Position numbers and translations under genes: made by a program. Positions 25,490 to 50,130 of a DNA stretch of 64,000 bases are shown here, one piece after another (positions within the stretch are counted from its first letter, which is position 1; each line of letters begins with the position of its first letter). The notes below the pieces were generated by a model, which had not been told where the DNA came from, made no database searches, and saw nothing but the letters and a program-made list of their open reading frames with translations. Source of the DNA: an uncultured Thermoplasmatales archaeon. GTDB taxonomy: Archaea > Thermoplasmatota > E2 > UBA202 > DSCA01. The DNA lies in assembly GCA_964514975.1 (NCBI GenBank), contig CAZESS010000003.1, forward strand, positions 61,334 to 125,333. Direction: 5' to 3'.

Positions 25490-26539
25490 TTGCTGCCTGT
25501 GCTCTACATCGTGATGGTGACGGCGGAGTGCAACATGGCGTGCAGCTACTGCGGGGGCAGCCTGGTGACCATGCCCAAAGACATCACCTACAATCTGGAG
25601 GACCTCGCAGCGTTCATCAGCCAGGATGAAGACGACGAGACGGTCGTCGCCCTCTACGGCGGCGAACCCCTGCTCCGGCCCGACATGGTGCATGAGCTGC
25701 TTGACATGCTGCCAGCCGACCGCCGGGTGTTGCAGACAAATGGGTTTTATATCGACCGGCTCGGCGAACACGTGCACGACCTCGATGCTATCCTGCTGTC
25801 CATCGACGGCCGGCAGGCGACAACGGACAGATACCGGGGCGAGGGCTGCCATGACCGGGTGATGCAGGCACGGCGGTGGCTCTCCATGCAGGACTACGAG
25901 GGCGACCTTGTCGCCCGGATGGCCGCCTCAAAGCACACCGACATCTACAGAGATGTCATGTACCTGCTCGAATGGTTTCCCCGTGTCCACTGGCAGCTGG
26001 ACGCCGTCTGGTCATCATTGTGGGATCTGCCGGCGTTCCGGCGATGGACAAAGCAATCCTACATGCCCGGCATCGAACATCTCGCCAGGATATGGACTGA
26101 GCATCTGGAGCAGGGCGAGGTATTGGGCATCGTGCCCTTCCTCGGCATAGCGAAGCGGGTCATCCGTGGCGGCTCGGGGCTGCCCTGCGGGGCCGGCCGG
26201 AGCGCCATGAGCATCACGACCGACGGCCGCGTGGTGGGCTGCCCCATCGCCGCCGAGTTTTCATGGAACCAGATGGGCGATTTTGATGACGTGCAATGTA
26301 TCGACATCGGCGAGCCATGTACCTCCTGTGACATCTACACGGTCTGCGGCGGGCGCTGCCTCTTCACATACAAGGAGCGACTGTGGGGCGACGAGGGCTT
26401 CACCCTGCTCTGCGATATCACCAAGCATCTCGTCGAACAAATCGAGGGAGCGCTGCCCCTCATCAGGTCGATGCTGCCCGACCATGAAAACGAGCTGCTG
26501 TACCCGCCGTTCAACAACACGACAGAGATTATACCCTAG
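25490..26539 (+). CDS. Radical SAM enzyme with C-terminal SPASM-type auxiliary cluster domain
   Basis: CNMACSYC (CX3CX2C) near the N-terminus. C-terminal Cys set CGAGRS...GCPIAAEF...CTSCDIYTVCGGRC typical of SPASM. Confidence 0.85.
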   Translation: MLPVLYIVMVTAECNMACSYCGGSLVTMPKDITYNLEDLAAFISQDEDDETVVALYGGEPLLRPDMVHELLDMLPADRRVLQTNGFYIDRLGEHVHDLDAILLSIDGRQATTDRYRGEGCHDRVMQARRWLSMQDYEGDLVARMAASKHTDIYRDVMYLLEWFPRVHWQLDAVWSSLWDLPAFRRWTKQSYMPGIEHLARIWTEHLEQGEVLGIVPFLGIAKRVIRGGSGLPCGAGRSAMSITTDGRVVGCPIAAEFSWNQMGDFDDVQCIDIGEPCTSCDIYTVCGGRCLFTYKERLWGDEGFTLLCDITKHLVEQIEGALPLIRSMLPDHENELLYPPFNNTTEIIP

Positions 26540-26712
26540 TGAGTACCATTAGCAGGACGGTGTTGGCAGAGATTGCCCGGCAATAGCTCGCCGTCGGTGA
26601 GGCCAACGGGTTATATATGGGGTTTGAGGGCAGGGTATCGAAGCATCATGAGGATTATTGTTTCGAGGTGAATAATCGTAATCATAATGCAGATGCAGGA
26701 AGAAAGATATTT

Positions 26713-26749
26713 ATATAACTATAATATTTCAGTTTTAAGCTATAATATT
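26713..26749 (+). promoter_or_regulatory. AT-rich promoter with two tandem TATA-like elements (CTATAATATTT x2, 9-bp spacer)
   Basis: The 220-bp region 26540-26760 is strongly AT-rich relative to the genome. 11-bp direct repeat at 26718-26728 and 26738-26748. TTTATATAAC at 26713. Confidence 0.4.
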
Positions 26750-26814
26750 TGAGGTTAAAACATGGGTGTTGAACGGCTGTCTGGAGAACCGCATTGTGAC
26801 ACGAGCCCGGGAGA

Positions 26815-27309
26815 ATGTTCCGGTGGAAACGGATGTCCGGAAGCGACGGCCGCTACCTGTATCGGGATGCCGTCCGTCACAGATCGTGTGCCGCGAGGGA
26901 TATCTCGATGGAGAGACACCCGAAGGAAACCGAAACGCCACATTATTCCCGGAGGTGCATAGATATGTGTTCAAATCATCCGCCCTGTCCTGGTGGGCCG
27001 AAGGGGCCGGTGGGCGGACGGATACAGCGGCTGCAAGGCCTGGCGAAAGCACTGCACTGCCCCACCCGCTGGGATATAATCGACATAATAGGAACGGGGT
27101 CAGCTAAAACGAGGGAGATAAAAGAAGGACTGGAGTCACGGGGCTATGATATAACCCAATCGGGATTGTATTATCATCTTTCAGAGCTGAGAGATGCCGG
27201 CATAATAGACGTTGCTGCATTTGTAGAAGAAGGCCAAGGGGCTCCAGAGAAGGTCTGGAAGCTGGTCAAAAAGAAAATAGAGATCGACCTGGCCCTTGAG
27301 GAGGACTAA
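26815..27309 (+). CDS. ArsR/SmtB-family winged-helix regulator with Cys/His-rich N-terminal extension (start uncertain: 26815 or internal ATG at 26965)
   Basis: C-terminal LAKALHCPTRWDIIDII...ITQSGLYYHLSELRDAGII is an ArsR HTH. Frame has high GC3 from ~26830. Internal ATG at 26965 is preceded by GGAGGTG. Ends 3 nt before the ABC ATPase start. Confidence 0.6.
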   Translation: MFRWKRMSGSDGRYLYRDAVRHRSCAARDISMERHPKETETPHYSRRCIDMCSNHPPCPGGPKGPVGGRIQRLQGLAKALHCPTRWDIIDIIGTGSAKTREIKEGLESRGYDITQSGLYYHLSELRDAGIIDVAAFVEEGQGAPEKVWKLVKKKIEIDLALEED

Positions 27310-27312
27310 CAG

Positions 27313-28233
27313 ATGAAGACAGCCGTGGCGGCCAGCGGGCTCACCAAAACATTCGGCAGGGTTCGGGCGGTAAAAAACGTTAGTTTCGAGGTTCAAAAGG
27401 GTGAGTTCTTCGGCTTTTTGGGTCCAAACGGCGCCGGCAAGACCACCACCATACGGATGCTGACGGGGTTGGTCACGCCTGATGCAGGACGAGCTTTGAT
27501 AGACGGAATTGACCCCTACCGGGACCCTATCCATGCAAAGCTACACATGGGCGTAATCCCCGAATTCGGCAATATCTATGTTGACCTGACGGCAAAAGAA
27601 AATCTCTATCTCGCTGGAAAATTCTATGGAATGCCAAAAAAAGAAATAAAGAAAAGGACATCTGAACTCCTGGAGATGCTGGAATTGAACGAGAGGGCGA
27701 ACGACACGGTTCGAACCTTCTCCAAGGGTATGAAGCAGCGGGTGAATATTGGATGTGCCATCATCCATGAACCGCCTGTACTCTTCCTGGACGAACCGAC
27801 TTCCGGTTTAGACGTGCAGAGTAAAAGGCTCGTGGTGGAATTAATGGGGAGGATGAAAGAACAGGGAAGCACGATATTTTTGACGACGCACAATATTCAG
27901 GAAGCAAATGAGCTCTGCGAACGAGTTGGCATTATACATGAGGGAGAACTCGTCGCCATTGATAGACCGGAAAAACTCCGAAATACATTCGATAAGACAC
28001 AGTCCATCGAGGTCTCCCTCGAGGGGGATTTTGACGTCGATCAGCTCAAAAATGGCCACGTCGACAAGATAACACGGTCGGGAGATAAGCTTACGATTTT
28101 CACCGATGAACCAGATATCTCTGTAAAAAAGCTGGTCAAACTGGCAGATGAAAGCAATGTAAAAATAATATCCCTTACAACGAAAGGGCCGAGCCTGGAA
28201 GAAGCCTTCGTGAGGTTGACAGGGGGTAATTGA
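27313..28233 (+). CDS. ABC-2 type transporter ATP-binding protein
   Basis: Walker A GPNGAGKTT, signature FSKGMKQRV, Walker B LFLDEP. Confidence 0.9.
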   Translation: MKTAVAASGLTKTFGRVRAVKNVSFEVQKGEFFGFLGPNGAGKTTTIRMLTGLVTPDAGRALIDGIDPYRDPIHAKLHMGVIPEFGNIYVDLTAKENLYLAGKFYGMPKKEIKKRTSELLEMLELNERANDTVRTFSKGMKQRVNIGCAIIHEPPVLFLDEPTSGLDVQSKRLVVELMGRMKEQGSTIFLTTHNIQEANELCERVGIIHEGELVAIDRPEKLRNTFDKTQSIEVSLEGDFDVDQLKNGHVDKITRSGDKLTIFTDEPDISVKKLVKLADESNVKIISLTTKGPSLEEAFVRLTGGN

Positions 28234-28979
28234 TGAGATATTCAGAATTCATAAGAGGGGTATTGACCACGGCAGAAAAGGACATCAAGATTTACTACAA
28301 GAAACCACCCGTCATCATATTCGGTCTTTTGTTTCCGTTTCTGATGTTCCTCGCGTTCTATATCGGGAGGGAAATAGATTTTGGTCTGTTCTTTCCGGGA
28401 TTCCTCGCTATGACGTTATTTTTTACTTCTTCCTCTGTAGGGCCACTGGTAACACCATGGGAGAGACAGGCAGGTACCTATGAAAGGCTTCTTTCATATC
28501 CTGTTAACATAAAAGCGGTCTTGCTGGGGGACATATTGGCCGGCGCGATATTTGGCATGGCGGTATACACCGTGGTCTTGGTGGCCGGTTCATTTTTCAT
28601 ACATCTTCAGATAGCAAATGGAGCCATACTGCTGATTTCCATAGTATTAGGGTCAATCACTTTTTCCTCCCTGGGAATAGTGATATCTGCACCAGCCACG
28701 ACATCCCCGTCATCCATAATGATGCTTTCGAGCCTGATTCGATTTCCTCTCATATTCATAAGCGGCATATTCATACCTCTCCAACAGATGGAAGGGCCAA
28801 TGAGGTACCTATCGTATATCTCGCCTCTCACCTATCTGGTAGATTCCTTGCATTCTGGAATCGGAGGTAAAAACGTTTTACCAATGGGTGCTGGAATAGT
28901 AGCTTTATTGACCTTCAGCGCGATATTTTTCTCGGCTGCCGTTCATATACATAAAAGGAACATGGTCAAGGGACTGTAA
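28230..28979 (+). CDS. ABC-2 family permease
   Basis: ATGA overlap with ATPase; six TM segments. Confidence 0.8.
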   Translation: MMRYSEFIRGVLTTAEKDIKIYYKKPPVIIFGLLFPFLMFLAFYIGREIDFGLFFPGFLAMTLFFTSSSVGPLVTPWERQAGTYERLLSYPVNIKAVLLGDILAGAIFGMAVYTVVLVAGSFFIHLQIANGAILLISIVLGSITFSSLGIVISAPATTSPSSIMMLSSLIRFPLIFISGIFIPLQQMEGPMRYLSYISPLTYLVDSLHSGIGGKNVLPMGAGIVALLTFSAIFFSAAVHIHKRNMVKGL

Positions 28980-29097
28980 AAAGTACCCCTGCTGATAAAA
29001 ATCCATCCAATATTTGACATTTGGCACCCATCTGCTGGCCCTTCCTCCTGCCGGCGGCTACATAACGTATATTAATGCCGTTGACATATGCATTGCA

Positions 29098-29916
29098 GTG
29101 ATTCGAATAGGTGCCGCCGGTATCCCGCTGTCGTGCAAGGACCGGACCAACCGCGACGGGGTTATCTACACGCGCAATCTCGGGCTATCGGCGATGGAGA
29201 TACAGCTCTCACGGGGGTTCATCAGCCGCGAGGAGGCCACCGACATCCGGGAAACGGCCGACAAGTGCGGCATCGACCTCTACATCCATGCGCCCTACTA
29301 CATCAACCTGACCGGTAACGAGCGCAACGTCGAGATGAGCCAGAACAAGATATGGCGCTCCATGCGTCTCGCTGAGCTGATGGACGCGCGGATGGTGACC
29401 ACCCATACCGGCTTCTATGGCTCGCTGTCGAAGCATGAGGCGATGCAGCGGATGGCCGGGCGTCTCCGGATGCTCCGCGACCAGATAAAGATGGAGGGCA
29501 TCGAGATACCCATCGGGGTGCAGACCATCGGCAAGCCCGAGGTGTTCGGCACGCTGGAGGAAATCGTGGAGCTGTGCACAAGGGTGCGCGGCATCCATCC
29601 GGTGCTCGACATGGCCCACATCCATGCCCGTCAGAACGGCCGATTGCAGGAAAAAGAGGACTTCCAGGAGGTGTTCAACAGCCTGGCGCCCCTAAACCTT
29701 GATCATGTCGTTGTCTATCTCACCGGGGTGCGCTACAACGCCGAGGGAGAGATATATCATGTGCCCGTCCGGAAGAGCGACATGCCGGTCATCAAGCTGA
29801 TGGAATGTATCGTTGAGCATGACTACAACGTGACCATTATCTCGGAGTCGCCCATCCTCGAGCATGACGCGGTCTACGGCCAGATACTGGTGGACCGTGC
29901 TATGGAAATATCGTGA
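29098..29916 (+). CDS. nfo: Endonuclease IV (AP endonuclease family 2)
   Basis: GTG start gives MIRIGAAGIP. HAPYYINL, HTG and MAHIHA metal-ligand motifs. TATATTAA lies 25 nt upstream (leaderless). Confidence 0.8.
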   Translation: MIRIGAAGIPLSCKDRTNRDGVIYTRNLGLSAMEIQLSRGFISREEATDIRETADKCGIDLYIHAPYYINLTGNERNVEMSQNKIWRSMRLAELMDARMVTTHTGFYGSLSKHEAMQRMAGRLRMLRDQIKMEGIEIPIGVQTIGKPEVFGTLEEIVELCTRVRGIHPVLDMAHIHARQNGRLQEKEDFQEVFNSLAPLNLDHVVVYLTGVRYNAEGEIYHVPVRKSDMPVIKLMECIVEHDYNVTIISESPILEHDAVYGQILVDRAMEIS

Positions 29917-30487: not shown

Positions 30488-30928
30488 ATGGTAATGACCA
30501 CGTATGACTACAAGGAGCTGCTGAACCGGTCGATGGAATCCCTGCCCGAGGACTTGACCTCGAAGGAACGGTTCCAGATGCCCGAAGGCGACGTATTCCA
30601 CGAGGGAAACACCACCATCATCCGGAACTTCCTCGACATCACCGACCAGGTTGGCCGGGACCCCCAGCACATGCTCACCTACCTGCTCAAGGAGCTCGGG
30701 ACCGCCGGCGAGCTGGACAACGAGCGCGCCATCTTCCAGGGCAAGATATCGATGGGCAAGGTCCAGGAGCGCATCGACGCCTACGTCAACACCTTCGTGG
30801 TCTGCCGGGAATGCGGCCGTCCTGACACCAATCTCATGAAGAAAAACCGCACGCTGCTGCTGAAATGCGAGGCGTGCGGCGCCATGCACCCGGTCAAGGC
30901 CAGGAAGGGGCGACGGGGCAGGCGATGA
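30488..30928 (+). CDS. eif2b: Translation initiation factor aIF-2 beta subunit
   Basis: C-terminal zinc ribbon CRECGRPDT...LKCEACGA and N-terminal helical domain. Confidence 0.9.
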   Translation: MVMTTYDYKELLNRSMESLPEDLTSKERFQMPEGDVFHEGNTTIIRNFLDITDQVGRDPQHMLTYLLKELGTAGELDNERAIFQGKISMGKVQERIDAYVNTFVVCRECGRPDTNLMKKNRTLLLKCEACGAMHPVKARKGRRGRR

Positions 30929-32319
30929 CGCCACGGCGCAAAAAGCTTCTCGTTCTCGGCGTCATTGCATGTGTCTTTCTCTTCTTCCATCTGTATCACC
31001 TTGAACGGCCGTTTTCGACCAACGGCATCGACGAGGGCATCCATCTCTTGCAGGCGCAGATGGCGGCCGACGGCTTCACGCTCTACGGGGAGCTCAACGG
31101 CGACCAGGCGCCGCTGGCCATCCTGACGTTTTCGCTGTTCAAGGGCGCGGTGCTGCCGTCGCGGCTGCTGTCGTTTCTATTGTTCGCGGGCGCCACCGGA
31201 GCCGCTGGAATCATCGCCTGGCGAATAAAAAACAGGCAGGCTGGCGTGATGACGGTGCTGCTGCTATCCCTCGACTTCACTCTGCTCAGGGAGTCGCGGC
31301 TGGCGTCTCTCGACCTGTTCTCGGCCGCGTTGCTCTGCATGGCCGGGCTGATCTTCATCGTCTACCTGGAGCGCCCACGCTGGATGTATGCCGCCGGCGG
31401 CGCCCTGCTGCTGTCGCTGTCCTGCCTGTCGAAGCTCATGGCTGCACCATGCGCCCTGGCTCTCACGGTGGCGGCCGTCTGGTACGCGGTGCGGCACAGG
31501 CGGTTGAAGCATTTTGCCGTCTACGCGCTGGCCGGAATGGTGCCAGCGCTGGCATTGCTTTTCCTGTTTTCGCCGGACGCGTTGCTCAACGGCGTGCTGC
31601 TCCGGCAGCTGCACCGTGGCGCCGACTGGTCGACGAAGGCATCGGTGCTGCTGTTCATCGGCCCATCCTTTGTCTATCTCCTGGCGCTGCGGCGGTGGGA
31701 TCTGCGGGACCGGCGGGTCGCGTTCGTGGTCCTCTGGCTGCTGTCTCTGCTTGCCTTCATCCTGGTGCAGGGCCGCACCTTTCAGCATCATTTCGCCTAC
31801 GCGGCGTTTCCCGCGGCCATCCTGGCCGGCATGGTACTCGGAGACTGGTCGCTTGATAGCCGGAAAACAGTGACGGTGGTGGCCGGCTTCGTGGCGGTCA
31901 ACACCGTTCTCATGGTGTCGCTGGTCGGCACGGCGCCCCCGGACCTGTCCTACGAGGTCGCGGACCACGTTGCGGCGGTGTCCGATGATGACGCCTGGGT
32001 GCTCTCGGGGAATCCCCTGGTGAACGTGCTGGCCGACCGCAACGCGCCGCCGAACCTGACAAACCTGGCGCGGCATCATTATCCGCCGACCACGACGTCG
32101 AACATCACCTACTGGCTGGAAGGCAATCGCGTGGAGGTCGTGGTGCTGTACTATCACCTGGCGGAGATGCCGGAGGTGGCGAGGTATCTCAACCGGAGCG
32201 GGCGCTACGAGAAAGCAATGGTCGTCGAGGGAAAAGGACAGCTGCTCTTCAACGGCGTCACGCCGCGGTTTTCCACGGACAGATACGTCGTCTACCGGGC
32301 GGTGAACGGGACTACCTGA
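30925..32319 (+). CDS. GT-C fold membrane glycosyltransferase (PMT/ArnT/GT39-like, dolichyl/undecaprenyl-phosphate-sugar dependent)
   Basis: ATGA overlap with aIF2-beta. About 11 TM segments with N-terminal DEG-containing loop (NGIDEGIHLL) typical of GT-C donors. Confidence 0.7.
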   Translation: MTPRRKKLLVLGVIACVFLFFHLYHLERPFSTNGIDEGIHLLQAQMAADGFTLYGELNGDQAPLAILTFSLFKGAVLPSRLLSFLLFAGATGAAGIIAWRIKNRQAGVMTVLLLSLDFTLLRESRLASLDLFSAALLCMAGLIFIVYLERPRWMYAAGGALLLSLSCLSKLMAAPCALALTVAAVWYAVRHRRLKHFAVYALAGMVPALALLFLFSPDALLNGVLLRQLHRGADWSTKASVLLFIGPSFVYLLALRRWDLRDRRVAFVVLWLLSLLAFILVQGRTFQHHFAYAAFPAAILAGMVLGDWSLDSRKTVTVVAGFVAVNTVLMVSLVGTAPPDLSYEVADHVAAVSDDDAWVLSGNPLVNVLADRNAPPNLTNLARHHYPPTTTSNITYWLEGNRVEVVVLYYHLAEMPEVARYLNRSGRYEKAMVVEGKGQLLFNGVTPRFSTDRYVVYRAVNGTT

Positions 32320-33391
32320 ACCAGGTCCAGAAGTTGTTGGCGAAAAAGTTCCAGATGAACACCACGCCGATGGCTATAACGGCCGCAAACAGGTAGTAGT
32401 AGCCGAATACCTCCCTGAGGAGGCCCATGACCCCCAGCTGCATCGGGAACGAGGGCGAACTGATAACGTTGAACTTGAAGAGACGCGCCCCGGCGCTCCG
32501 GAGGCCTTTTTCTCCCCGGTCATGGAACGTCCACACCTCGTTCAGGGCGTAGTTGGACAGGATGGAGAGCTCGATGGCGAACACCGCGGAGACCAGATAA
32601 TACAGGCCCGCCTGCTCGGTCAGCAGCCACAGCACGCCAAGGTTGACCAGGACGCCGCTGCCGCCGACCAGCATAAACTTGATGAACCGAACGATTTCCC
32701 CGGTGTCCCATGACAGGCGGAGCAGATGGCGGAGATATTTTCCATATTCGTTGGCCACCAGGGAGCTGCTCCCCCGCTCCCGGTCCTGAAACACGATGGG
32801 CACCTCCCGTACGTCGGTGCAGCGCCCCCGTATCAATATTTCGAGAAGGATCTTGTAGCCCACGGGGCGAAGCTCGACGTCCTCAATGACCCTGCTGCGG
32901 AGCATGAAAAACCCGGACAATGGGTCGCTGACCATCCGGCAGCCGGGCAGCAAAAGATGCGCCATGAGGGTCGCCCCCTTGGAGGACAGACGCCGCAGGA
33001 ACGACCACTGCTCTATTTCGCCGCCCGGTACGTAGCGGCTGCCCACCACCACGTCGGCGCCGTCGTCGATAGCCGCCAGCAGGTCAACGAGCTTCTCGGG
33101 TGGATGCTGCAGATCGGCGTCCATGACCGTCAGGATGTCGCCACTGCTCCGGCGGAAGCCCTCGATGACCGACAACGCAAGGTCGCGCTTCCCGGTCCGC
33201 CGCACCACCCTGAGAAAGTCATACCGCGCCTGGAGCTCATCGGCCCGGTCGGCGGTGCCGTCGGGGCTGTCGTCGTCGACGATGACCAGCTCGAAGTCCA
33301 CGTCATGCAGCGCTATGGCCACCTGCTCCAGCAGATGGGGCAGGTTGTCGGCCTCGTTGTACGTGGGGACCACCAGGGAGAGCCGGGGCAT
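32312..33391 (-). CDS. GT2 dolichyl-phosphate-sugar synthase-like glycosyltransferase with C-terminal GtrA-like TM domain
   Basis: LSLVVPTYNEADNL...VIVDDDSPDGT...DADLQHPPE (DXD plus QxxRW-like) then four TM segments. Confidence 0.8.
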   Translation of the reverse strand: MPRLSLVVPTYNEADNLPHLLEQVAIALHDVDFELVIVDDDSPDGTADRADELQARYDFLRVVRRTGKRDLALSVIEGFRRSSGDILTVMDADLQHPPEKLVDLLAAIDDGADVVVGSRYVPGGEIEQWSFLRRLSSKGATLMAHLLLPGCRMVSDPLSGFFMLRSRVIEDVELRPVGYKILLEILIRGRCTDVREVPIVFQDRERGSSSLVANEYGKYLRHLLRLSWDTGEIVRFIKFMLVGGSGVLVNLGVLWLLTEQAGLYYLVSAVFAIELSILSNYALNEVWTFHDRGEKGLRSAGARLFKFNVISSPSFPMQLGVMGLLREVFGYYYLFAAVIAIGVVFIWNFFANNFWTWFR

Positions 33392-44702: not shown

Positions 44703-44773
44703 AGGGCGGGGCGGGAGTTGAACCCGCGTATGCGGATCTGCAGTCCGCCACCTCGCCTCTAGGTTACCCGCCC
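44703..44773 (-). tRNA. tRNA-Cys (GCA), CCA not encoded
   Basis: Cloverleaf: GGGCGGG acceptor, ACCT/AGGT D-stem, GCGGA-CTGCAGA-TCCGC anticodon arm (anticodon GCA), GCGGG-TTCAACT-CCCGC T-arm, discriminator T. Followed by CTTTTTTGG. Confidence 0.8.
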
Positions 44774-44896
44774 AGATGGGTCATGCAGGATAACATGGCG
44801 CACCAGTTTTTAACGTTTTGCCGTCCGATGAGCGGCAACCTTTTTTAGCTCCGGGGACATGCCATGTGAATGCCATCGACCGCGAGCGATGCCGAC

Positions 44897-45778
44897 ATGT
44901 CGTCAGTGCCAGCCATCCTGCTGGTATCGCTGCCGCTGATCGGATGGTCGCTTGCATTTCCATTGATAAAAATCGCGCTCGACGAGCTCTCCTGGGTCAA
45001 CCTGACCATCCTCCGCTTCCTGGTGGCGTGCAGCACGCTGCTGGTGCTGCTGGGCCTGCAGCGGCACCGGTTTCCGCTGCCTGGCCGGCAGGAGCTGCCA
45101 GCGCTCTTTTTACTGGGGTTTTTTGGCATCATCGTCTACCATCTCGGCCTCAACTATGGCGAGCAGTATGTGTCGCCGGGGGCGGCCAGCCTCCTCGTGG
45201 CGACCATTCCCGTGTTCGTGGTCATGCTCGCCGTCGTGTTCCTGGACGAGGGCATCACAGGCTGGAAGCTGCTGGGCATCACGCTCTCGCTGGCGGGTGT
45301 CGTCGTGCTCTCGCTGTGGGGCACCGGCACCGCCACGATAGAAATCGACTATGTGGGAGGCGCAATCGCCGTGCTGATTGCCGCCGTGATGGGCGCCTTG
45401 TATACCGTGGCTGGCAAAAAAATGCTGGGGCGGTATTCCCCGCTGTCGCTGACCGTCTACGCCATCCTGCTGGGCAGCCTCGGGTTGCTTCCCGCCGTCA
45501 ATGGCTCGTTGTTCAGGCAACTCGGGCACCTGTCGCTGCAGGCCACCGCCGCGGTGCTCTTCCTCGGGCTGTTTTCCACCATTGTGAGCTACGCGCTCTG
45601 GTACATGGCGCTGCAGCGGCAGTCCGCCTCATCATTAAGCGTCTACCTCTATGTCGTCCCGGTGGTCGCCACCGCCCTGAGCTGGATGCTGTTCGATGAC
45701 GCCATAACGCCGATGTATCTCCTGGGCGGCGTGCTGGTCATCGGGGGCGTCGCCATCGTCAACCGGCAGCGCCGTTGA
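44897..45778 (+). CDS. EamA/DMT-family transporter
   Basis: Ten TM segments with two EamA repeats. Confidence 0.8.
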   Translation: MSSVPAILLVSLPLIGWSLAFPLIKIALDELSWVNLTILRFLVACSTLLVLLGLQRHRFPLPGRQELPALFLLGFFGIIVYHLGLNYGEQYVSPGAASLLVATIPVFVVMLAVVFLDEGITGWKLLGITLSLAGVVVLSLWGTGTATIEIDYVGGAIAVLIAAVMGALYTVAGKKMLGRYSPLSLTVYAILLGSLGLLPAVNGSLFRQLGHLSLQATAAVLFLGLFSTIVSYALWYMALQRQSASSLSVYLYVVPVVATALSWMLFDDAITPMYLLGGVLVIGGVAIVNRQRR

Positions 45779-45781
45779 GAA

Positions 45782-45793
45782 CGTTTATAAAAC
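45782..45793 (+). promoter_or_regulatory. TATA box (CGTTTATAAAAC) for the rSAM-MTase-DUF2064-GT2 operon
   Basis: About 25 nt upstream of the ATG at 45815 (leaderless geometry). Confidence 0.4.
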
Positions 45794-45814
45794 CCGGTGT
45801 GTTGAACGGGCATC

Positions 45815-46864
45815 ATGTGCCCATGTGAGACGGCGGCGCGGGCCGGCCTGCACCCAGATGGTAGGGAGGAAAAAGCATATTTCGATGCCGGACGGGTCTA
45901 CGCTGTCCAGATAGAGCTCAACCTGGCCTGTCCGCAGGGCTGCCTGTACTGCTACGCCTCCGATGCCAATCCACCAGAGGAGGGGATGCCCCAGGAGGAC
46001 GTCGTCGCCGTCTTGGACGCAGCCGTCGACATGGACATTCGGGCGGTAGACTGGCTCGGCGGCGACCCGTTGGTGCGGGACGACTGGTACGAGCTCATGC
46101 GGTATGCGCAGCAGCAGGGACTGGTCAACAACATCTGGACGAGCGGGATGCCGCTGCAGGATGAATTGGTGGCCCGACGGGCGGTCGAGGTCTCCCGCGG
46201 CGGCTTCATCTCGGTGCACCTCGACAGCCTCAACGAAGCGATATATGGACGGCTGCACACGGGTAATCCTGCGGGCAAGATACACGCCATCCTGGCCGGG
46301 GTCGACAACGTGCAGGCAGCCGGCAAAAACCCGGAGCACATGGTAAACTGTATCACCTTTACCAGGGCGGTGGCAGATGATGCAGCCCGCACCATCCGGT
46401 TTTTCCAGGAGGAAAAGGGCATGCGGACCTGTCTCACACAGATGTGCCCGACGGGGCTGGCCGAGGAACGGGACGACCTGGTGCCATCCATGGAGGAGAT
46501 AGAAAACGCGTGCACCGTCCGCGACAGGGTCAACTATCCCGGCTCGAAGCTGTCGATATGCTCCATGGACACCAACAGGTACTACTGCGGCGGCATCATC
46601 TGCGTAACGGTCGACGGCGACGTGACCCCCTGCTCCGTCATCCGGCAGGGCGTCGGCAACATACACGATGCAGCGCTGCGGGATATCGTCGAGCGGCACC
46701 GTGACACGTTGCTGTTCACCGACCTCCGGAACGACAGCGGGCTCCCCAAGGACTGCCGGGATTGCGAGCACAACGTCGTCTGCTGGGGCTGCCGCGCCGC
46801 CGCCTACTACGCGACCGGCGACGTCTGCGGGCCTGACCCCAACTGCTACCGCAGAAAGAGATAA
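45815..46864 (+). CDS. Radical SAM enzyme with Cys-rich (SPASM-like) C-terminal domain
   Basis: CPQGCLYC CX3CX2C motif. C-terminal cysteines CSMDTNRYYCGG...CSVI...CRDCEHNVVCWGC...CGPDPNC. Confidence 0.85.
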   Translation: MCPCETAARAGLHPDGREEKAYFDAGRVYAVQIELNLACPQGCLYCYASDANPPEEGMPQEDVVAVLDAAVDMDIRAVDWLGGDPLVRDDWYELMRYAQQQGLVNNIWTSGMPLQDELVARRAVEVSRGGFISVHLDSLNEAIYGRLHTGNPAGKIHAILAGVDNVQAAGKNPEHMVNCITFTRAVADDAARTIRFFQEEKGMRTCLTQMCPTGLAEERDDLVPSMEEIENACTVRDRVNYPGSKLSICSMDTNRYYCGGIICVTVDGDVTPCSVIRQGVGNIHDAALRDIVERHRDTLLFTDLRNDSGLPKDCRDCEHNVVCWGCRAAAYYATGDVCGPDPNCYRRKR

Positions 46865-46895
46865 GAAGCACAGCCCGATATATCCGGGTGGTTGC

Positions 46896-47708
46896 ATGAA
46901 CGACGGCCAAAAGGAAAAACGGCTTGATTACACCATCGGAGACGTGATCGACATCTACGCCGGCCCGGTCGGCGTGCTGTGGCAGATGCTGATGGGCGAC
47001 CAGATACATGTCGGCGGCGAAGCGGAAACCCTGGCGCTGGCGGAGCGAGCCCGCATAACCGGCGACAGCAGGGTGCTCGACGTGTGCAGCGCGCTCGGTG
47101 CCCCGGCCCGGCAGCTCGCCACCCGGTATGGATGCACCGTGGTCGGGCTCGACGCAACGGAAAAAATGGTTGAGCTGGCTGAACGGGACACCATGACGGC
47201 AGGGCTTTCAGGGCAGGTGTCGTTTCGGCTGGGGAACGCGCTCGACATGCCCTTCAAGCGGGAGAGCTTCACGGTGGTCTGGGGTCAGGATGCCTGGTGC
47301 TATGTGACCGACAAAAAACGGCTGGTCGAGGAAGCATATCGGGTGCTTGTGCCCGGGGGCACCATCGCGTTTACCGACTGGCTGCAGACCGGCGATATGA
47401 CGGCGGAGGAATGGGAGCTGCTCAACGGGTTCATGGCCTTTCCCTACATGGAGACCCCTGACGGCTACGTGGAGCTGCTCCGCCGGGCGGGCTTCGAAAA
47501 CGTCGAGGTGGAGGACACCGGCGAGCTGTTCGCCCGGCACTGCCATCGCTATCTGGACATGCTCCGCACCGAGCTGCGGGATGACATCATCGACGGCTAC
47601 GGCCCTGAGATGTACGAGGCAGCGGAGGACGGGCTCCAGCGATGGACGGCGGCGGCCGACGCGGGCACGGTGGGCCGCGGCATGTTCCTGGGACGCAAGC
47701 CGAGATGA
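46896..47708 (+). CDS. Class I SAM-dependent methyltransferase
   Basis: VLDVCSALGAPA (motif I) and acidic motif II/III pattern. Start at the internal ATG at 46896, after the rSAM stop. Confidence 0.8.
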   Translation: MNDGQKEKRLDYTIGDVIDIYAGPVGVLWQMLMGDQIHVGGEAETLALAERARITGDSRVLDVCSALGAPARQLATRYGCTVVGLDATEKMVELAERDTMTAGLSGQVSFRLGNALDMPFKRESFTVVWGQDAWCYVTDKKRLVEEAYRVLVPGGTIAFTDWLQTGDMTAEEWELLNGFMAFPYMETPDGYVELLRRAGFENVEVEDTGELFARHCHRYLDMLRTELRDDIIDGYGPEMYEAAEDGLQRWTAAADAGTVGRGMFLGRKPR

Positions 47709-47735
47709 CGGGGGCAAGCCTTTTTGTAGCCCGGC

Positions 47736-48434
47736 ATGTTTAAAACCCGGATGGACGGCAGGGGCACGCAGAGCTGCATTCTTCTCTATATCAAATATCC
47801 AGAGCCGGGACGGGTGAAAACCCGGCTGAGCGAGGCGCTGGACGGCGGCGTCGCAGCGGAGCTCTACCGGCATTTCGTCATAGATGTGCTCGCAATGGTA
47901 AAGGACACCGGACACGACGTCATCATATGTTACGCTCCCGCCGGGCGGGAGGAGGACTTCCGGAGATGGCTCGGCCCCCGCCATCGGTATCATCGGCAGC
48001 GGGGCGACACCCTGGGTGAAAAACTGAAGCATGGCTTCGCCGACATCTATGCGGCGGGCTACCGGAGCGCCGTTGCCATTGGCAGCGACAGCCCGGACCT
48101 GCCATCCCGGTATATCGAGATGGCGTTCACCCGGCTTGGGGAACATGACGTGGTCATCGGACCGGCGGTCGACGGCGGCTACTATCTGATAGGCTTCGCC
48201 AGGGATACCTTTGTGCCGGAGGCGTTCGACGGCATCGAATGGAGCACGTCCACCGTGCTGCATGAAACGCTGCGGAATCTCCGGCGGCAGCCCGGAGATG
48301 TTGATGTTCACCTGCTGCCGGCGTGGAAGGATGTGGACACCCTCGACGACCTATGGGCGCTCATATATCGCACCCGGAACAGCGCGTTTGCGTCATCGGC
48401 CACGATGCGCTACATCACCGATCAGATACCATGA
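47736..48434 (+). CDS. DUF2064-family (CofC/MobA-like GT-A fold) putative nucleotidyl/glycosyl transferase
   Basis: N-terminal ILLYIKYPEPGRVKTRL...AELYRHFVIDVL pattern of the DUF2064 (TIGR04282-like) family. Confidence 0.65.
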   Translation: MFKTRMDGRGTQSCILLYIKYPEPGRVKTRLSEALDGGVAAELYRHFVIDVLAMVKDTGHDVIICYAPAGREEDFRRWLGPRHRYHRQRGDTLGEKLKHGFADIYAAGYRSAVAIGSDSPDLPSRYIEMAFTRLGEHDVVIGPAVDGGYYLIGFARDTFVPEAFDGIEWSTSTVLHETLRNLRRQPGDVDVHLLPAWKDVDTLDDLWALIYRTRNSAFASSATMRYITDQIP

Positions 48435-49132
48435 CAGATGAGACATGCATGCATCCAGAGATATCCGTGGTGGTACCGTTCCACGCGAGCGTCGACGGCA
48501 TTGCGGCAATACGGGCCATGATAGATACGGCCAGCGTGCCGACGGAAACCATCTACGTGGTCGACAGCGGGCTGCGGCACGTGATGCCGCGGCCGCGCGA
48601 CCGTGAAACGGTCATCTGGATAGAAAACCGGGGCAGGGGATACAACCTCCGGGAGGGCGCAAAACATGCCCGGGGGGACATCATTGTGTTCCTGCACGCG
48701 GACACCGTGCTTCCATCCGGGTGGGACACGGCGATATGCGATGCCATGGAAGACAGCGATGTGGCCGGCGGCGGGTTTTCCCTTCGATTCGACCATGACA
48801 GCCCGTTTCTCCGGCTGGTGGTGCTGGCGAGCGATCTGCTCATCTATCTCATGGGCCGTTTTTCTGGGGATAGAGCCATGTTCGTCCGCGCTCCCCTGAT
48901 ACAGCGGCATCCCAACGTGCTCGACGTCCCCATCATGGAGGACACCGAGCTCTCCATTTTCATGCAACAGCAGGGGAAAACGGTGCTCCTGCAGAAAACG
49001 GCTGTTACGAGCGCGGCGACCTTCGTCCGGCACGGGTTCCTCCGCAACACGCTACGAATCATCATCTGTTCGCTGTGGTACGCGGTCGGAATGAATCTGC
49101 AGGACATCTACGATTTCTATTACCGCAGGTGA
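48431..49132 (+). CDS. GT2-family glycosyltransferase
   Basis: ISVVVPFH...VVDSG...FLHADTVLP (GT-A, DXD-like) pattern. ATGA overlap with the upstream gene. Confidence 0.8.
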   Translation: MTDETCMHPEISVVVPFHASVDGIAAIRAMIDTASVPTETIYVVDSGLRHVMPRPRDRETVIWIENRGRGYNLREGAKHARGDIIVFLHADTVLPSGWDTAICDAMEDSDVAGGGFSLRFDHDSPFLRLVVLASDLLIYLMGRFSGDRAMFVRAPLIQRHPNVLDVPIMEDTELSIFMQQQGKTVLLQKTAVTSAATFVRHGFLRNTLRIIICSLWYAVGMNLQDIYDFYYRR

Positions 49133-49146
49133 ACGCCGCGGCGGGG

Positions 49147-50130
49147 CTAGTCGGCGTGCGCTATCGCCTCGGGCGGGAATGGCTCCTGGGTCTGCCGCTG
49201 GTCATCCCATCCCGTCAGGGTCTCGTAGTGAACGTTCCAGTTTGTCCCCTGCATCGTCAGGGTGAACGTGACGTTGGAGACCTCGGAGGTAACGGTGACG
49301 GTGTCGCCGGGCTGATATTCGTCGGTGATGTCTCCCTCGACGGTGAGCGCGCTGCGGGTGTACGAGGAAAACTGGAGCACGGTGATGTCCCGACTGCTGT
49401 TGTATGACAGGTTTTGGAGCTGGTCTCTGATGGTCACGGTGTCGCCCTCGTCATATGAGGCCAGGTAGACCATCAGGGTGTCGGTGTCGTTATCCCTGGT
49501 CTGCCGGTAGTCGCTCTGGAACTCGTAGAATGACAGCGCTCCGTCGTCCTGGTCATCTCCCGTGTCATCTGTGTCGTCCCCGGTGTCGTTTCCGTCGCCG
49601 TCGGTGTCATCATCGATGTCGGCGGTTTCCGCGTGCGCTATCGCTTCGGGCGGGAAGGGCGTCTGGGTGTTGTTCTGGGTGTCCCATCCATTCTTGAAGG
49701 TTTCGTAGTGGATGGTCCAGTTCTGGCCCTGCATCGGGTAGGTGAACGTGGTGTTGATGATCGGGGAGGTCAGGGTGACGTTGTCGCCGGCCTGGAAATC
49801 ATCGGTGATGTTGCCCTGGACGGCCTGGTACTGCCGGGGATACGAGGAAAACTGGATGAGCGTCATGCTCTCGTTGCCCTGGTCCCTGTAGGTCAGGTTT
49901 TGGAGCTTGTCCCGGATGACCACGGTGTCACCCTCGTCGAGCGACCGCAGATACATGACCATGGTCTGCGTCTGGTTGTCCCTGGTGCTGTTGTAGTCCT
50001 GGTTGAACTCCAAAAATGTCATCGTCTCCGTCATGCCGCCGGTGTCTCCGTTGTCGTCCTCCAGGCACCCGGCGGTCGCCACGACCGCCAGGACGCAGAC
50101 GAGCAGCGATACAACAATAGCTCGTTTCAT
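49147..50130 (-). CDS. Sequon-dense surface lipoprotein with two internal ~150-aa tandem repeats joined by an acidic D/T/G linker
   Basis: Signal plus lipobox-like ATAGC. Repeats each end in EPFPPEAIAHA(E/D). About 14 N-x-S/T sequons in 327 aa. Confidence 0.7.
   Translation of the reverse strand: MKRAIVVSLLVCVLAVVATAGCLEDDNGDTGGMTETMTFLEFNQDYNSTRDNQTQTMVMYLRSLDEGDTVVIRDKLQNLTYRDQGNESMTLIQFSSYPRQYQAVQGNITDDFQAGDNVTLTSPIINTTFTYPMQGQNWTIHYETFKNGWDTQNNTQTPFPPEAIAHAETADIDDDTDGDGNDTGDDTDDTGDDQDDGALSFYEFQSDYRQTRDNDTDTLMVYLASYDEGDTVTIRDQLQNLSYNSSRDITVLQFSSYTRSALTVEGDITDEYQPGDTVTVTSEVSNVTFTLTMQGTNWNVHYETLTGWDDQRQTQEPFPPEAIAHAD
49153..50010. repeat. Intragenic tandem duplication (~480 bp x2, ~70% nt identity) within the lipoprotein gene
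   Basis: Both copies begin GCGTGCGCTATCGC(C/T)TCGGGCGGGAA and share long colinear blocks such as TACGAGGAAAACTGGA and CAGGTTTTGGAGCT. Confidence 0.6.

Follow-up and report, generated by a model that had tools for sequence, protein, structure and literature searches.

The DNA analysed here (the window: 64,000 nucleotides of contig CAZESS010000003.1, assembly GCA_964514975.1, from an uncultured Thermoplasmatales archaeon) contains a cassette of four same-strand genes, which encode in order a SPASM-domain enzyme of the radical S-adenosylmethionine (SAM) type, a class I SAM-dependent methyltransferase, a protein of the TIGR04282/DUF2064 family ('transferase 1', T1) and a small family 2 glycosyltransferase (GT2). 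The cassette is real and widely conserved. It is a variant of a computationally known cassette type, and its core is a large, highly conserved and unnamed pair, the SPASM radical SAM enzyme and the methyltransferase. Our preferred interpretation, to which we give a probability of about 0.45, is that of a two-module biosynthetic cassette for a small molecule or a membrane glycoconjugate. It starts from the gene identities, the synteny and the family memberships, and the chemistry, the order of the steps and the acceptor are proposed on top of these.

A scan of one genome per species gave 205 loci. The best 80 of them were analysed further, and families were assigned with NCBIfam release 20 and Pfam. 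The closest loci belonged to metagenome-assembled genomes of uncultured Thermoplasmatales/Thermoplasmatota (79-82% identity); across the archaeal and bacterial loci identity ranged from 49 to 82% for the radical SAM enzyme and from 51 to 79% for the methyltransferase. Other archaeal carriers were Bathyarchaeia, Methanoperedens and other Methanosarcinales, a Promethearchaeota (Asgard) bin and Methanomicrobiales, the last with cultured Methanoculleus species, Methanosphaerula, Methanoregula and Methanospirillum; the bacterial carriers were Chlorobi and Chloroflexi/Dehalococcoidales. The methyltransferase gene directly followed the radical SAM gene in 71 of the 73 loci with enough sequence (62/64 archaeal, 9/9 bacterial). 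The initial annotation of this DNA, made from the letters without database searches, had considered that the genes might show no conserved synteny in related genomes; over the 80 loci the synteny proved to be strongly conserved.

The remaining members are more variable. Among the archaeal loci with full flanks (n = 45), 36 had T1 no more than 6 kb from the pair and 34 had a GT2 of the TIGR04283 type (the T2 family) no more than 7 kb away, the latter usually divergent and upstream, and the gene order and strand of the transferases vary between archaeal loci. A further partner, X217, is a protein of about 218 aa with six transmembrane segments, for which neither Pfam nor NCBIfam gave a match. 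It lies within about 10 kb in 24 of these 45 loci, mostly directly upstream of the radical SAM gene (for example L003, 7286-7939, and L027, 12560-13726), and seven of 39 distinct sequences have an N-terminal fusion to a ferritin-like di-iron domain, the identified ones coming from Bathyarchaeota bins. The GT2 type of the window occurs in seven archaeal loci, including four confirmed Thermoplasmatota cassettes, and two of the seven carry both GT2 types. Neither X217 nor a second, TIGR04283-type GT2 was found elsewhere in the 64-kb window.

The bacterial loci examined for these partners (n = 7) contained T1 once and no GT2 or X217. Because they mostly lack T1 and none has GT2 or X217, the core pair works without the transferases, and the system is modular, with an invariant radical SAM/SPASM-methyltransferase core and accessory, mainly archaeal TIGR04282, GT2 and X217 members. 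Clustering of the open reading frames (ORFs) of at least 70 aa from 85 loci gave the methyltransferase, T1, GT2 and X217 only. A Pfam scan of 150 neighbouring ORFs from the 80 loci revealed no family with more than four occurrences, and ars genes were absent from the 25 commonest neighbour families listed.

Two of the loci are likely mis-binned. The contig of L068, from a Bacteroidota bin, is Methanoregula-like and bears X217 and a GT2 that scores like that of the Methanoregula loci, and L082 ('Chloroflexia') resembles the Chlorobi loci in match scores, with a near-identical N-terminal sequence. Two proteins without a family match, one GT-C-like (about 470 aa) and the other a membrane protein (about 190 aa), recur in five to seven loci, of which the identified ones are Bathyarchaeota bins (examples are L017, 8624-10657, and L027, 11984-12541); L017 also holds an extra DPM1-like GT2. 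These neighbours could reflect lineage synteny or be a hint of polyprenyl-phosphate-linked transfer.

The radical SAM protein matched PF04055 with 53 bits, the SPASM domain PF13186 with 27.2 bits (cut-off 21.5) and TIGR04085 with 34.3 bits (cut-off 27). In an alignment of 18 diverse homologues, the CxxxCxxC motif (C39-x3-C43-x2-C46) and the SPASM cysteines C258, C263, C273, C314, C317, C323, C326 and C344 are invariant; so are two extra cysteines, C206 and C211, while C179 and C233 are kept at 90% or more, and an N-terminal motif H-P-x4-E-x2-YF is specific to the family. By these matches and residues the protein is a member of the SPASM subfamily, and the "Cys-rich tail" reported by the initial annotation turned out to be a SPASM domain of the canonical kind and differs from the DUF3641 tail of TIGR04167. 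With only 38 residues ahead of the radical SAM motif, the protein lacks an RRE/PqqD-like N-terminal domain.

The database contained 534 homologues of this protein at E <= 1e-10, and the 120 best were 54-96% identical, most of them 55-65%. No equivalog model was reached. The best NCBIfam match was AhbD (99 bits against a cut-off of 500), followed by TIGR04053 (89 against 395), NirJ2 (78 against 500), PqqE (73 against 381), AhbC (68 against 650) and MftC (62 against 265), and the structures of anSME, which the initial annotation had named as a possible family, matched at fold level only (TM-score about 0.65, 15% identity). By these scores, none of the well-characterised radical SAM families takes in the enzyme. 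Identity with ArsS (TIGR04167) was also considered and rejected: Pfam finds the SPASM domain and no C-terminal DUF3641 (PF12345); TIGR04167 is outside the 25 best of 45 NCBIfam matches, the 25th of which has 33 bits, so that its score is at most 33 (cut-off 300); and BLASTP against the ArsS of L091 aligned only 94 N-terminal residues, at 24% identity. The genuine ArsS proteins of L090 and L091 score 390 and 405 bits on TIGR04167.

An AlphaFold2 model of the enzyme (predicted local distance difference test, pLDDT, 80) was matched by Foldseek about equally to SkfB, SuiB, DesII, GDGT-MAS, BlsE, PqqE, MoaA and anSME. The modelled fold therefore agrees with generic SPASM/twitch relatives and does not discriminate function. 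At the level of sequence profiles, BtrN weakly matches the family. Compared with the small-molecule SPASM/twitch enzymes (AhbD/AhbC/NirJ, BtrN, DesII, BlsE), our protein has the same radical SAM core with a C-terminal auxiliary-cluster domain and no RRE, but it scores far under their cut-offs and differs by the H-P-x4-E-x2-YF motif and the invariant C206/C211. No fusions and no informative names were found in the top 120 matches of the radical SAM enzyme, the methyltransferase and T1; the names are generic, with the exception of one methyltransferase orthologue labelled "putative arsenite methyltransferase".

The methyltransferase matched Methyltransf_11/25/31 in Pfam. Its best NCBIfam match was sarcosine/dimethylglycine N-methyltransferase (107 bits against a cut-off of 550, residues 51-268), and the DVU_1556-family methyltransferase gave 73 bits against 155. 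Among solved structures, its nearest relatives are those of a D-glucose O-methyltransferase (6uv6), MitM and phosphoethanolamine N-methyltransferases (residues 30-249), and the 120 best database matches are 54-96% identical, most of them 55-65%. The phosphoethanolamine and sarcosine/dimethylglycine N-methyltransferases and the RebM-type sugar O-methyltransferases are thus its best sequence relatives, with a match over most of the protein. Unlike them, it remains well under the equivalog cut-offs, has an unusual motif I (DVCSALG) and carries C135 and Y136, which are invariant in 76 orthologues, C135 being the sole invariant cysteine. We take the relatives to carry L-H at this position, and presumably they share with our protein the N-terminal catalytic-Tyr segment and the xQDAxx[HY] sequence after motif II.

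Identity with ArsM was rejected. The methyltransferase scored 64.7 bits on NF008823 (arsenite methyltransferase; cut-off 263) and 29.5 bits on NF038099 (arsenosugar ArsM; cut-off 400), and when it was aligned to a true ArsM, which scores 355 bits on NF008823, the As(III)-binding cysteines of the latter (ISNC, GCLSG) fell on D132 and F179. Judged by these scores and this alignment, the window methyltransferase is not an ArsM.

T1 is a true member of TIGR04282 (186.4 bits, cut-off 134), as the initial annotation had supposed, with 120 bits on PF09837 and 204 bits to the solved structure 3CGX, whose substrate is unassigned. A sub-threshold match to CofC (45 bits, cut-off 105) and the shared fold make T1 similar to CofC/FbiD (2-phospho-L-lactate guanylyltransferase) and suggest that it may activate a phosphomonoester with a nucleoside triphosphate (NTP), although T1 belongs to the separate DUF2064/TIGR04282 family. 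The T1 of the window is 47-50% identical (202-236 bits) to ArsS-linked and other bacterial T1s and only 35-42% identical (110-132 bits) to most T1s of SPASM cassettes. Since it is nearer to the former than to the latter, these comparisons suggest that the transferase module is interchangeable or has moved between cassette types, with a similar job in both.

The GT2 was described as TIGR04283-like, and TIGR04283 is indeed its best match, but with 132 bits it stays under the cut-off of 182; other scores were 36 bits on PF00535 and 32 on MftF (cut-off 280). The usual GT2 of archaeal cassettes passes the TIGR04283 cut-off with 193 bits and bacterial ones reach 244-258. The window GT2 is 43-46% identical to the GT2s of four other Thermoplasmatota cassettes and at most 30% identical to any true TIGR04283 protein. 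We found no relative in PDB by sequence, and its C-terminus looks hydrophobic by eye. Members of the T2 family weakly match glucosyl-3-phosphoglycerate synthase and dolichyl-phosphate hexose transferases.

From these assignments we propose the following two-module scheme. Module 1 would be the radical SAM/SPASM enzyme and the methyltransferase, evolutionarily invariant and behind their own TATA box. With two auxiliary Fe-S clusters and a 5'-deoxyadenosyl radical, the radical SAM enzyme would dehydrogenate, decarboxylate or epimerise a small polar metabolite in the manner of sugar-acting SPASM/twitch enzymes, and the methyltransferase would N- or O-methylate the product of this step or its precursor. 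Module 2, the TIGR04282 protein and the small GT2, would be accessory, exchangeable and mainly archaeal: T1, with its CofC/MobA-like nucleotidyltransferase fold, would activate a phosphorylated unit with NTP, and the GT2 would pass the activated unit to an acceptor at the membrane. Export or flipping might be carried out by X217 in other archaea and possibly by an EamA transporter in the lineage of the window. A small polar metabolite is proposed as the substrate because there is no RRE domain and, in the two lineages inspected gene by gene, no room for a precursor gene, and because the enzyme resembles sugar- and tetrapyrrole-acting SPASM/twitch enzymes. The presence of the small-molecule enzymes DesII and BlsE among the fold matches is in favour of it, as are the closest solved relatives of the methyltransferase, which are small-molecule O- and N-methyltransferases.

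Several points weigh against this scheme. The radical SAM enzyme, the methyltransferase and X217 have no family-specific NCBIfam or Pfam model. SPASM enzymes act on peptides and proteins too, and the fold alone permits a macromolecular substrate. The glycosyltransferase roles of T1 and T2 are annotation by association, with no experimental description in the literature searched; the window GT2 is under its family cut-off, X217 is missing from the window, and the element GCAAGCCTTTTTGTAG between the two modules (described below) could act solely as a terminator.

The computationally known type to which the cassette was compared is the ArsM-ArsS-TIGR04282-TIGR04283 (+DedA/VTT) set, also known as the "rSAM/selenodomain-associated transferase" set. 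In NCBIfam, TIGR04167 carries the name "arsenosugar biosynthesis radical SAM (seleno)protein ArsS", and both TIGR04282 and TIGR04283 are called "arsenosugar biosynthesis glycosyltransferases". The initial annotation had likened the window proteins to a partner set of TIGR04167, TIGR04282 and TIGR04283; of this, TIGR04282 and the conserved synteny stood, TIGR04283 was sub-threshold and TIGR04167 did not hold. It had also stated that the set has no experimentally known product, which is outdated for TIGR04167: according to a passage of PMC12159101 that cites Cheng et al. 2021, ArsS adenosylates arsenic in oxo-arsenosugar biosynthesis.

The methyltransferase, taken by the initial annotation for an addition of the window, is not peculiar to it, and an ArsM-like gene (partial, at a contig end) lies beside ArsS in at least one genuine ArsS cassette. 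Around the closest outside relatives of the window T1, the layout of L090 is [ArsM-like][ArsS][T1][VTT/DedA], and that of L091, from a Thermoplasmatota bin, is [T2][ArsS][VTT][Fe-S protein][T1]. The two types of cassette are alike in combining a radical SAM enzyme, a class I methyltransferase, both transferase families and a small polytopic membrane protein, and the window T1 is a true TIGR04282 protein with 47% identity to ArsS-linked T1s. They differ in that the window radical SAM enzyme is of the SPASM type and not TIGR04167/DUF3641, the methyltransferase lacks the arsenic-binding cysteines of ArsM, the GT2 is below the TIGR04283 threshold, and the membrane protein is DedA in the arsenosugar set but X217 in other archaeal SPASM cassettes and missing as X217 from the window. 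As far as sequence comparison goes, the window cassette is parallel to the ArsS set in architecture, with non-orthologous core enzymes. Since both the radical SAM enzyme and the methyltransferase are non-orthologous replacements, we expect that the product differs from arsenosugars and is probably arsenic-free.

The transferases themselves are found outside both contexts. In L087 and L089, which also hold near relatives of the window T1, T1 and T2 occur with DUF3047, a MerA-like flavoprotein and DedA and without ArsS, the sole radical SAM protein there being BioB-like. More generally, bacterial TIGR04282/TIGR04283 genes (L087, 4831-10705; L088, 6116-11226; L089, 350-2625) recur with DUF3047, DUF547, a MerA-like FAD oxidoreductase and DedA/VTT. 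Their recurrence without ArsS nearby suggests that T1 and T2 have a role of their own beyond arsenosugars. Because they occur without ArsS and also beside enzymes that bear no arsenic signature, the name "arsenosugar" reflects association and not demonstrated function. In the literature searched, DUF2064 is unmentioned, the accessions TIGR04282, TIGR04283 and TIGR04167 appear in annotation tables only, and no paper combines SPASM, arsenic, methyltransferase and archaea; the "arsenosugar" transferase label is already repeated as evidence of arsenic detoxification.

An alternative with arsenic, which we consider unlikely, is an ArsS-independent organo-arsenic or metalloid sugar pathway, where the methyltransferase would methylate As(III) or another metalloid, the SPASM enzyme would form the carbon-metalloid bond and T1/T2 would build the riboside, a role that has been proposed for them in arsenosugar synthesis. 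The architecture, equal to that of genuine ArsM-ArsS-T1-T2 sets, the NCBIfam names of T1 and T2, the extra cysteines C206 and C211 and the patchy, resistance-gene-like spread over anaerobes of several phyla are consistent with it. So is a bona fide ArsM gene (355 bits, NF008823) that is located immediately downstream and convergent in Candidatus Methanoperedens (L003, 10600-11433, minus strand). However, a real ArsM adjoins the cassette in that lineage only, ars genes are not enriched among the 150 neighbouring ORFs, T1/T2 are also found without ArsS nearby, and the window neighbourhood is composed of housekeeping genes (ribosomal proteins, elongation factor EF-2, tRNA synthetases). The methyltransferase is moreover far under both ArsM cut-offs and has the arsenic-binding cysteines replaced, C135 being its only invariant one.

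The fact that most characterised SPASM enzymes are peptide maturases, with SkfB, SuiB and PqqE among the top fold matches, raises the question of a ribosomally synthesised and post-translationally modified peptide (RiPP) or peptide-derived cofactor of the mycofactocin type. Here the SPASM enzyme would mature a peptide encoded elsewhere, an MftF-like GT2 would glycosylate it and a methyltransferase similar to MftM, the methyltransferase of the mycofactocin system, would methylate the sugar. The combination of SPASM radical SAM enzyme, MftF-like GT2 and methyltransferase is indeed shared with that system, TIGR04283 is modelled as "glyco_like_mftF", the GT2s weakly match MftF, and the best solved relative of the methyltransferase is a sugar O-methyltransferase. 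We nevertheless regard this as quite improbable. The cassette has no equivalents of MftA, MftB, MftD or MftE and no RRE/PqqD-like domain, and the MftC and MftF scores are far under the cut-offs. In the two lineages inspected gene by gene, Methanoperedens and a Thermoplasmata genome, the genes overlap or are separated by gaps of at most 61 nt, with no room for a precursor there, and neither a conserved small ORF nor any further partner turned up among the ORFs of at least 70 aa examined in the 80 loci.

A macromolecule (tRNA, rRNA or protein) as the target of the pair, with T1, T2 and X217 as frequent neighbours of separate function, would agree with the occurrence of the pair alone in bacteria and some archaea, with its very high conservation, often among housekeeping genes, and with the independent existence of T1 and T2. 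We give this explanation a low probability too, as it is difficult to reconcile, in the absence of a functional link, with the frequency of T1 (36/45) and the TIGR04283-type GT2 (34/45) near the pair in several phyla despite varying order and strand, and the methyltransferase has small-molecule enzymes as relatives, not RNA or protein methyltransferases.

Within the two-module small-molecule scheme we might speculate on a more specific version, which is doubtful at present. The SPASM-methyltransferase pair would make an arsenic-free, methylated sugar- or polyol-like unit, perhaps, in analogy to ArsS, from the 5'-deoxyribosyl moiety of SAM, and TIGR04282, GT2 and X217 would install it on archaeal membrane lipids or another envelope acceptor. 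If this were true, an unrecognised class of head groups or glycoconjugates would be common to Thermoplasmatota, Bathyarchaeia, Methanoperedens and Methanomicrobiales, and the "arsenosugar" transferases would be general handlers of radical-SAM-derived sugars. Several other products were set aside, as they do not seem to fit the phyletic pattern of the pair: the butanetriol and pentanetriol tetraether backbones, the aminopentanetetrol head groups, the tailoring of F430 or cobamides, and anaerobic ergothioneine or ovothiol synthesis.

If the two-module scheme is correct, many uncultured anaerobic archaea and some bacteria make, with a pair that has over 500 homologues in the database, a metabolite not known so far, through a pathway built on the same transferase chassis as that of arsenosugars. 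The radical SAM enzyme would then represent a new family of SPASM enzymes, probably acting on small molecules, and the scheme would for the first time open a way to the function of TIGR04282 and TIGR04283. In similar genomes, annotation as "arsenosugar biosynthesis glycosyltransferase" should not be counted as evidence of arsenic metabolism; T1 and T2 stand here beside enzymes that are not of the arsenic type and elsewhere beside no ArsS-type radical SAM enzyme, which is a warning on annotation by association.

The genes and elements of the region are listed in Table 1. Reading of the ORFs gave the four same-strand genes and the convergent lipoprotein gene at the coordinates already reported by the initial annotation. 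A longer methyltransferase ORF starting at 46668 is an artefact of an in-frame upstream start.

Table 1. Cassette genes, neighbouring genes and promoter-like elements, numbered from the first letter of the window.
Feature	Position	Strand	Remark
Radical SAM/SPASM enzyme, 349 aa	45815..46864	+	first core gene
Class I SAM-dependent methyltransferase, 270 aa	46896..47708	+	second core gene
T1, TIGR04282/DUF2064 protein with CofC/MobA-like GT-A fold, 232 aa	47736..48434	+	
GT2, 233 aa, diverged paralogue of TIGR04283	48431..49132	+	
Surface lipoprotein, 327 aa, convergent to the cassette	49147..50130	-	
EamA/DMT-family transporter, directly upstream of the cassette	44870..45778	+	PF00892, 157 bits
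Promoter-like element ACGTTTATAAAA	45781..45792	+	contains TATA-like box TTTATAAAA at 45784-45792
Conserved intergenic element GCAAGCCTTTTTGTAG	47715..47729	+	in the methyltransferase-DUF2064 gap

The junctions are less uniform than had been described. Of the 4-nt ATGA overlaps first reported at several junctions, only that of the DUF2064 stop with the GT2 start (48431-48434, -4 nt) exists, and the other two are gaps: 31 nt between the radical SAM and methyltransferase genes, and 27 or 42 nt between the methyltransferase and DUF2064 genes, for a DUF2064 start at 47736 or 47751, respectively. The second ATG, at 47751 (227 aa), is more likely to be the start because that of the relatives appears to align there, by a reading made by eye without an alignment. 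A GGTG Shine-Dalgarno-like motif at 46887-46890, 5-9 nt ahead of the methyltransferase ATG, fits an internal operon gene.

The TATA-like box TTTATAAAA noted ahead of the radical SAM gene was found again, with its centre about 27 nt upstream of the 45815 ATG. It is part of the 12-mer ACGTTTATAAAA, which is kept at an equal distance from the ATG in four relatives (L006-L009) with diverged flanks, and which we infer to be a real archaeal promoter; the spacing of about 27 nt between box and ATG would give a leaderless or near-leaderless mRNA. The second element, GCAAGCCTTTTTGTAG, is kept in the window and in three relatives (L006-L008). The centre of its T-rich box lies about 27 nt ahead of the 47751 ATG, the same geometry as that of the box at 45784, and it could be an internal promoter and/or an oligo-T terminator of the radical SAM-methyltransferase unit. 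The genes are co-directional with short gaps, in agreement with the proposal of one operon behind one TATA box; since GCAAGCCTTTTTGTAG shares the box-to-ATG geometry of the first promoter, this proposal is plausible but not secure. Two conserved promoter-like boxes of identical geometry fit a two-module organisation.

The EamA gene is located upstream of the cassette only in the closest relatives (L006-L009), with the promoter box between the two. It is a lineage-specific neighbour that could export the product. A tRNA gene (44703-44773, minus strand; 62 bits in Rfam) lies between an alpha/beta hydrolase gene and the EamA gene, and no riboswitch or other informative RNA was found in the 42-52 kb part of the window or upstream of the pair in nine bacterial loci.

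The initial annotation had supposed a radical-SAM-dependent methylated glycan that decorates the neighbouring lipoprotein. Its description of the lipoprotein was borne out: the protein has 14 N-x-S/T sequons, far above chance (3.8 +/- 1.7 in 5000 shuffles), and two tandem repeats of about 130 aa each with 58% identity (E 5e-55), together with a signal peptide, a TAGC lipobox and an acidic D/T/G linker joining the repeats. An AlphaFold2 model from the single sequence failed (pLDDT 35). Orthologues in the three closest relatives (L006-L008; 41-48% identity) each have 10 sequons and retain the lipobox and the two repeats. They are the only ones beside a cassette, the lipoprotein being absent there in all other lineages of the 80 loci, and a functional link with the cassette is therefore unsupported. 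The domain family comprises 129 representative clusters and has no Pfam model; most of its members are lipoproteins of about 160 aa with a single domain, and its median is 2.2 sequons per 100 aa, compared with 4.3 in the window protein. Other secreted or membrane proteins of the window are sequon-rich as well (an M28 peptidase with 18, an ABC-2 permease with 8). From these features the lipoprotein is probably an ordinary, N-glycosylated surface protein and a bystander outside the cassette.

Decoration of the lipoprotein is thus very unlikely, despite its sequons, its place beside the cassette in the closest relatives and the GT2 and nucleotidyltransferase-like protein of the cassette, because the two are convergent and not co-transcribed, do not stay together in other lineages, the core pair exists in bacteria also where no glycosyltransferase is near, sequon richness is general to the family and to other secreted proteins of the window, and a more ordinary candidate for surface glycosylation exists about 15 kb away. 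The latter is a divergent pair of a PMT_2-type GT-C gene (30865-32319, plus strand) and a GT2 gene with a GtrA/DPMS transmembrane domain (32312-33391, minus strand), which is a conventional dolichyl-phosphate-sugar (synthase and PMT_2) module with no relation to the cassette.

A second radical SAM gene (25490-26539, 349 aa, PF04055 only) was found at the edge of a low-GC stretch at 26-30 kb, with a GC content of 0.51-0.53 against about 0.60 elsewhere in the window. This stretch (noted at 25490-29916) holds an ArsR/helix-turn-helix-like gene, genes for an ABC ATPase and a permease, and a xylose-isomerase-like TIM-barrel gene, and it may be a horizontally acquired island.

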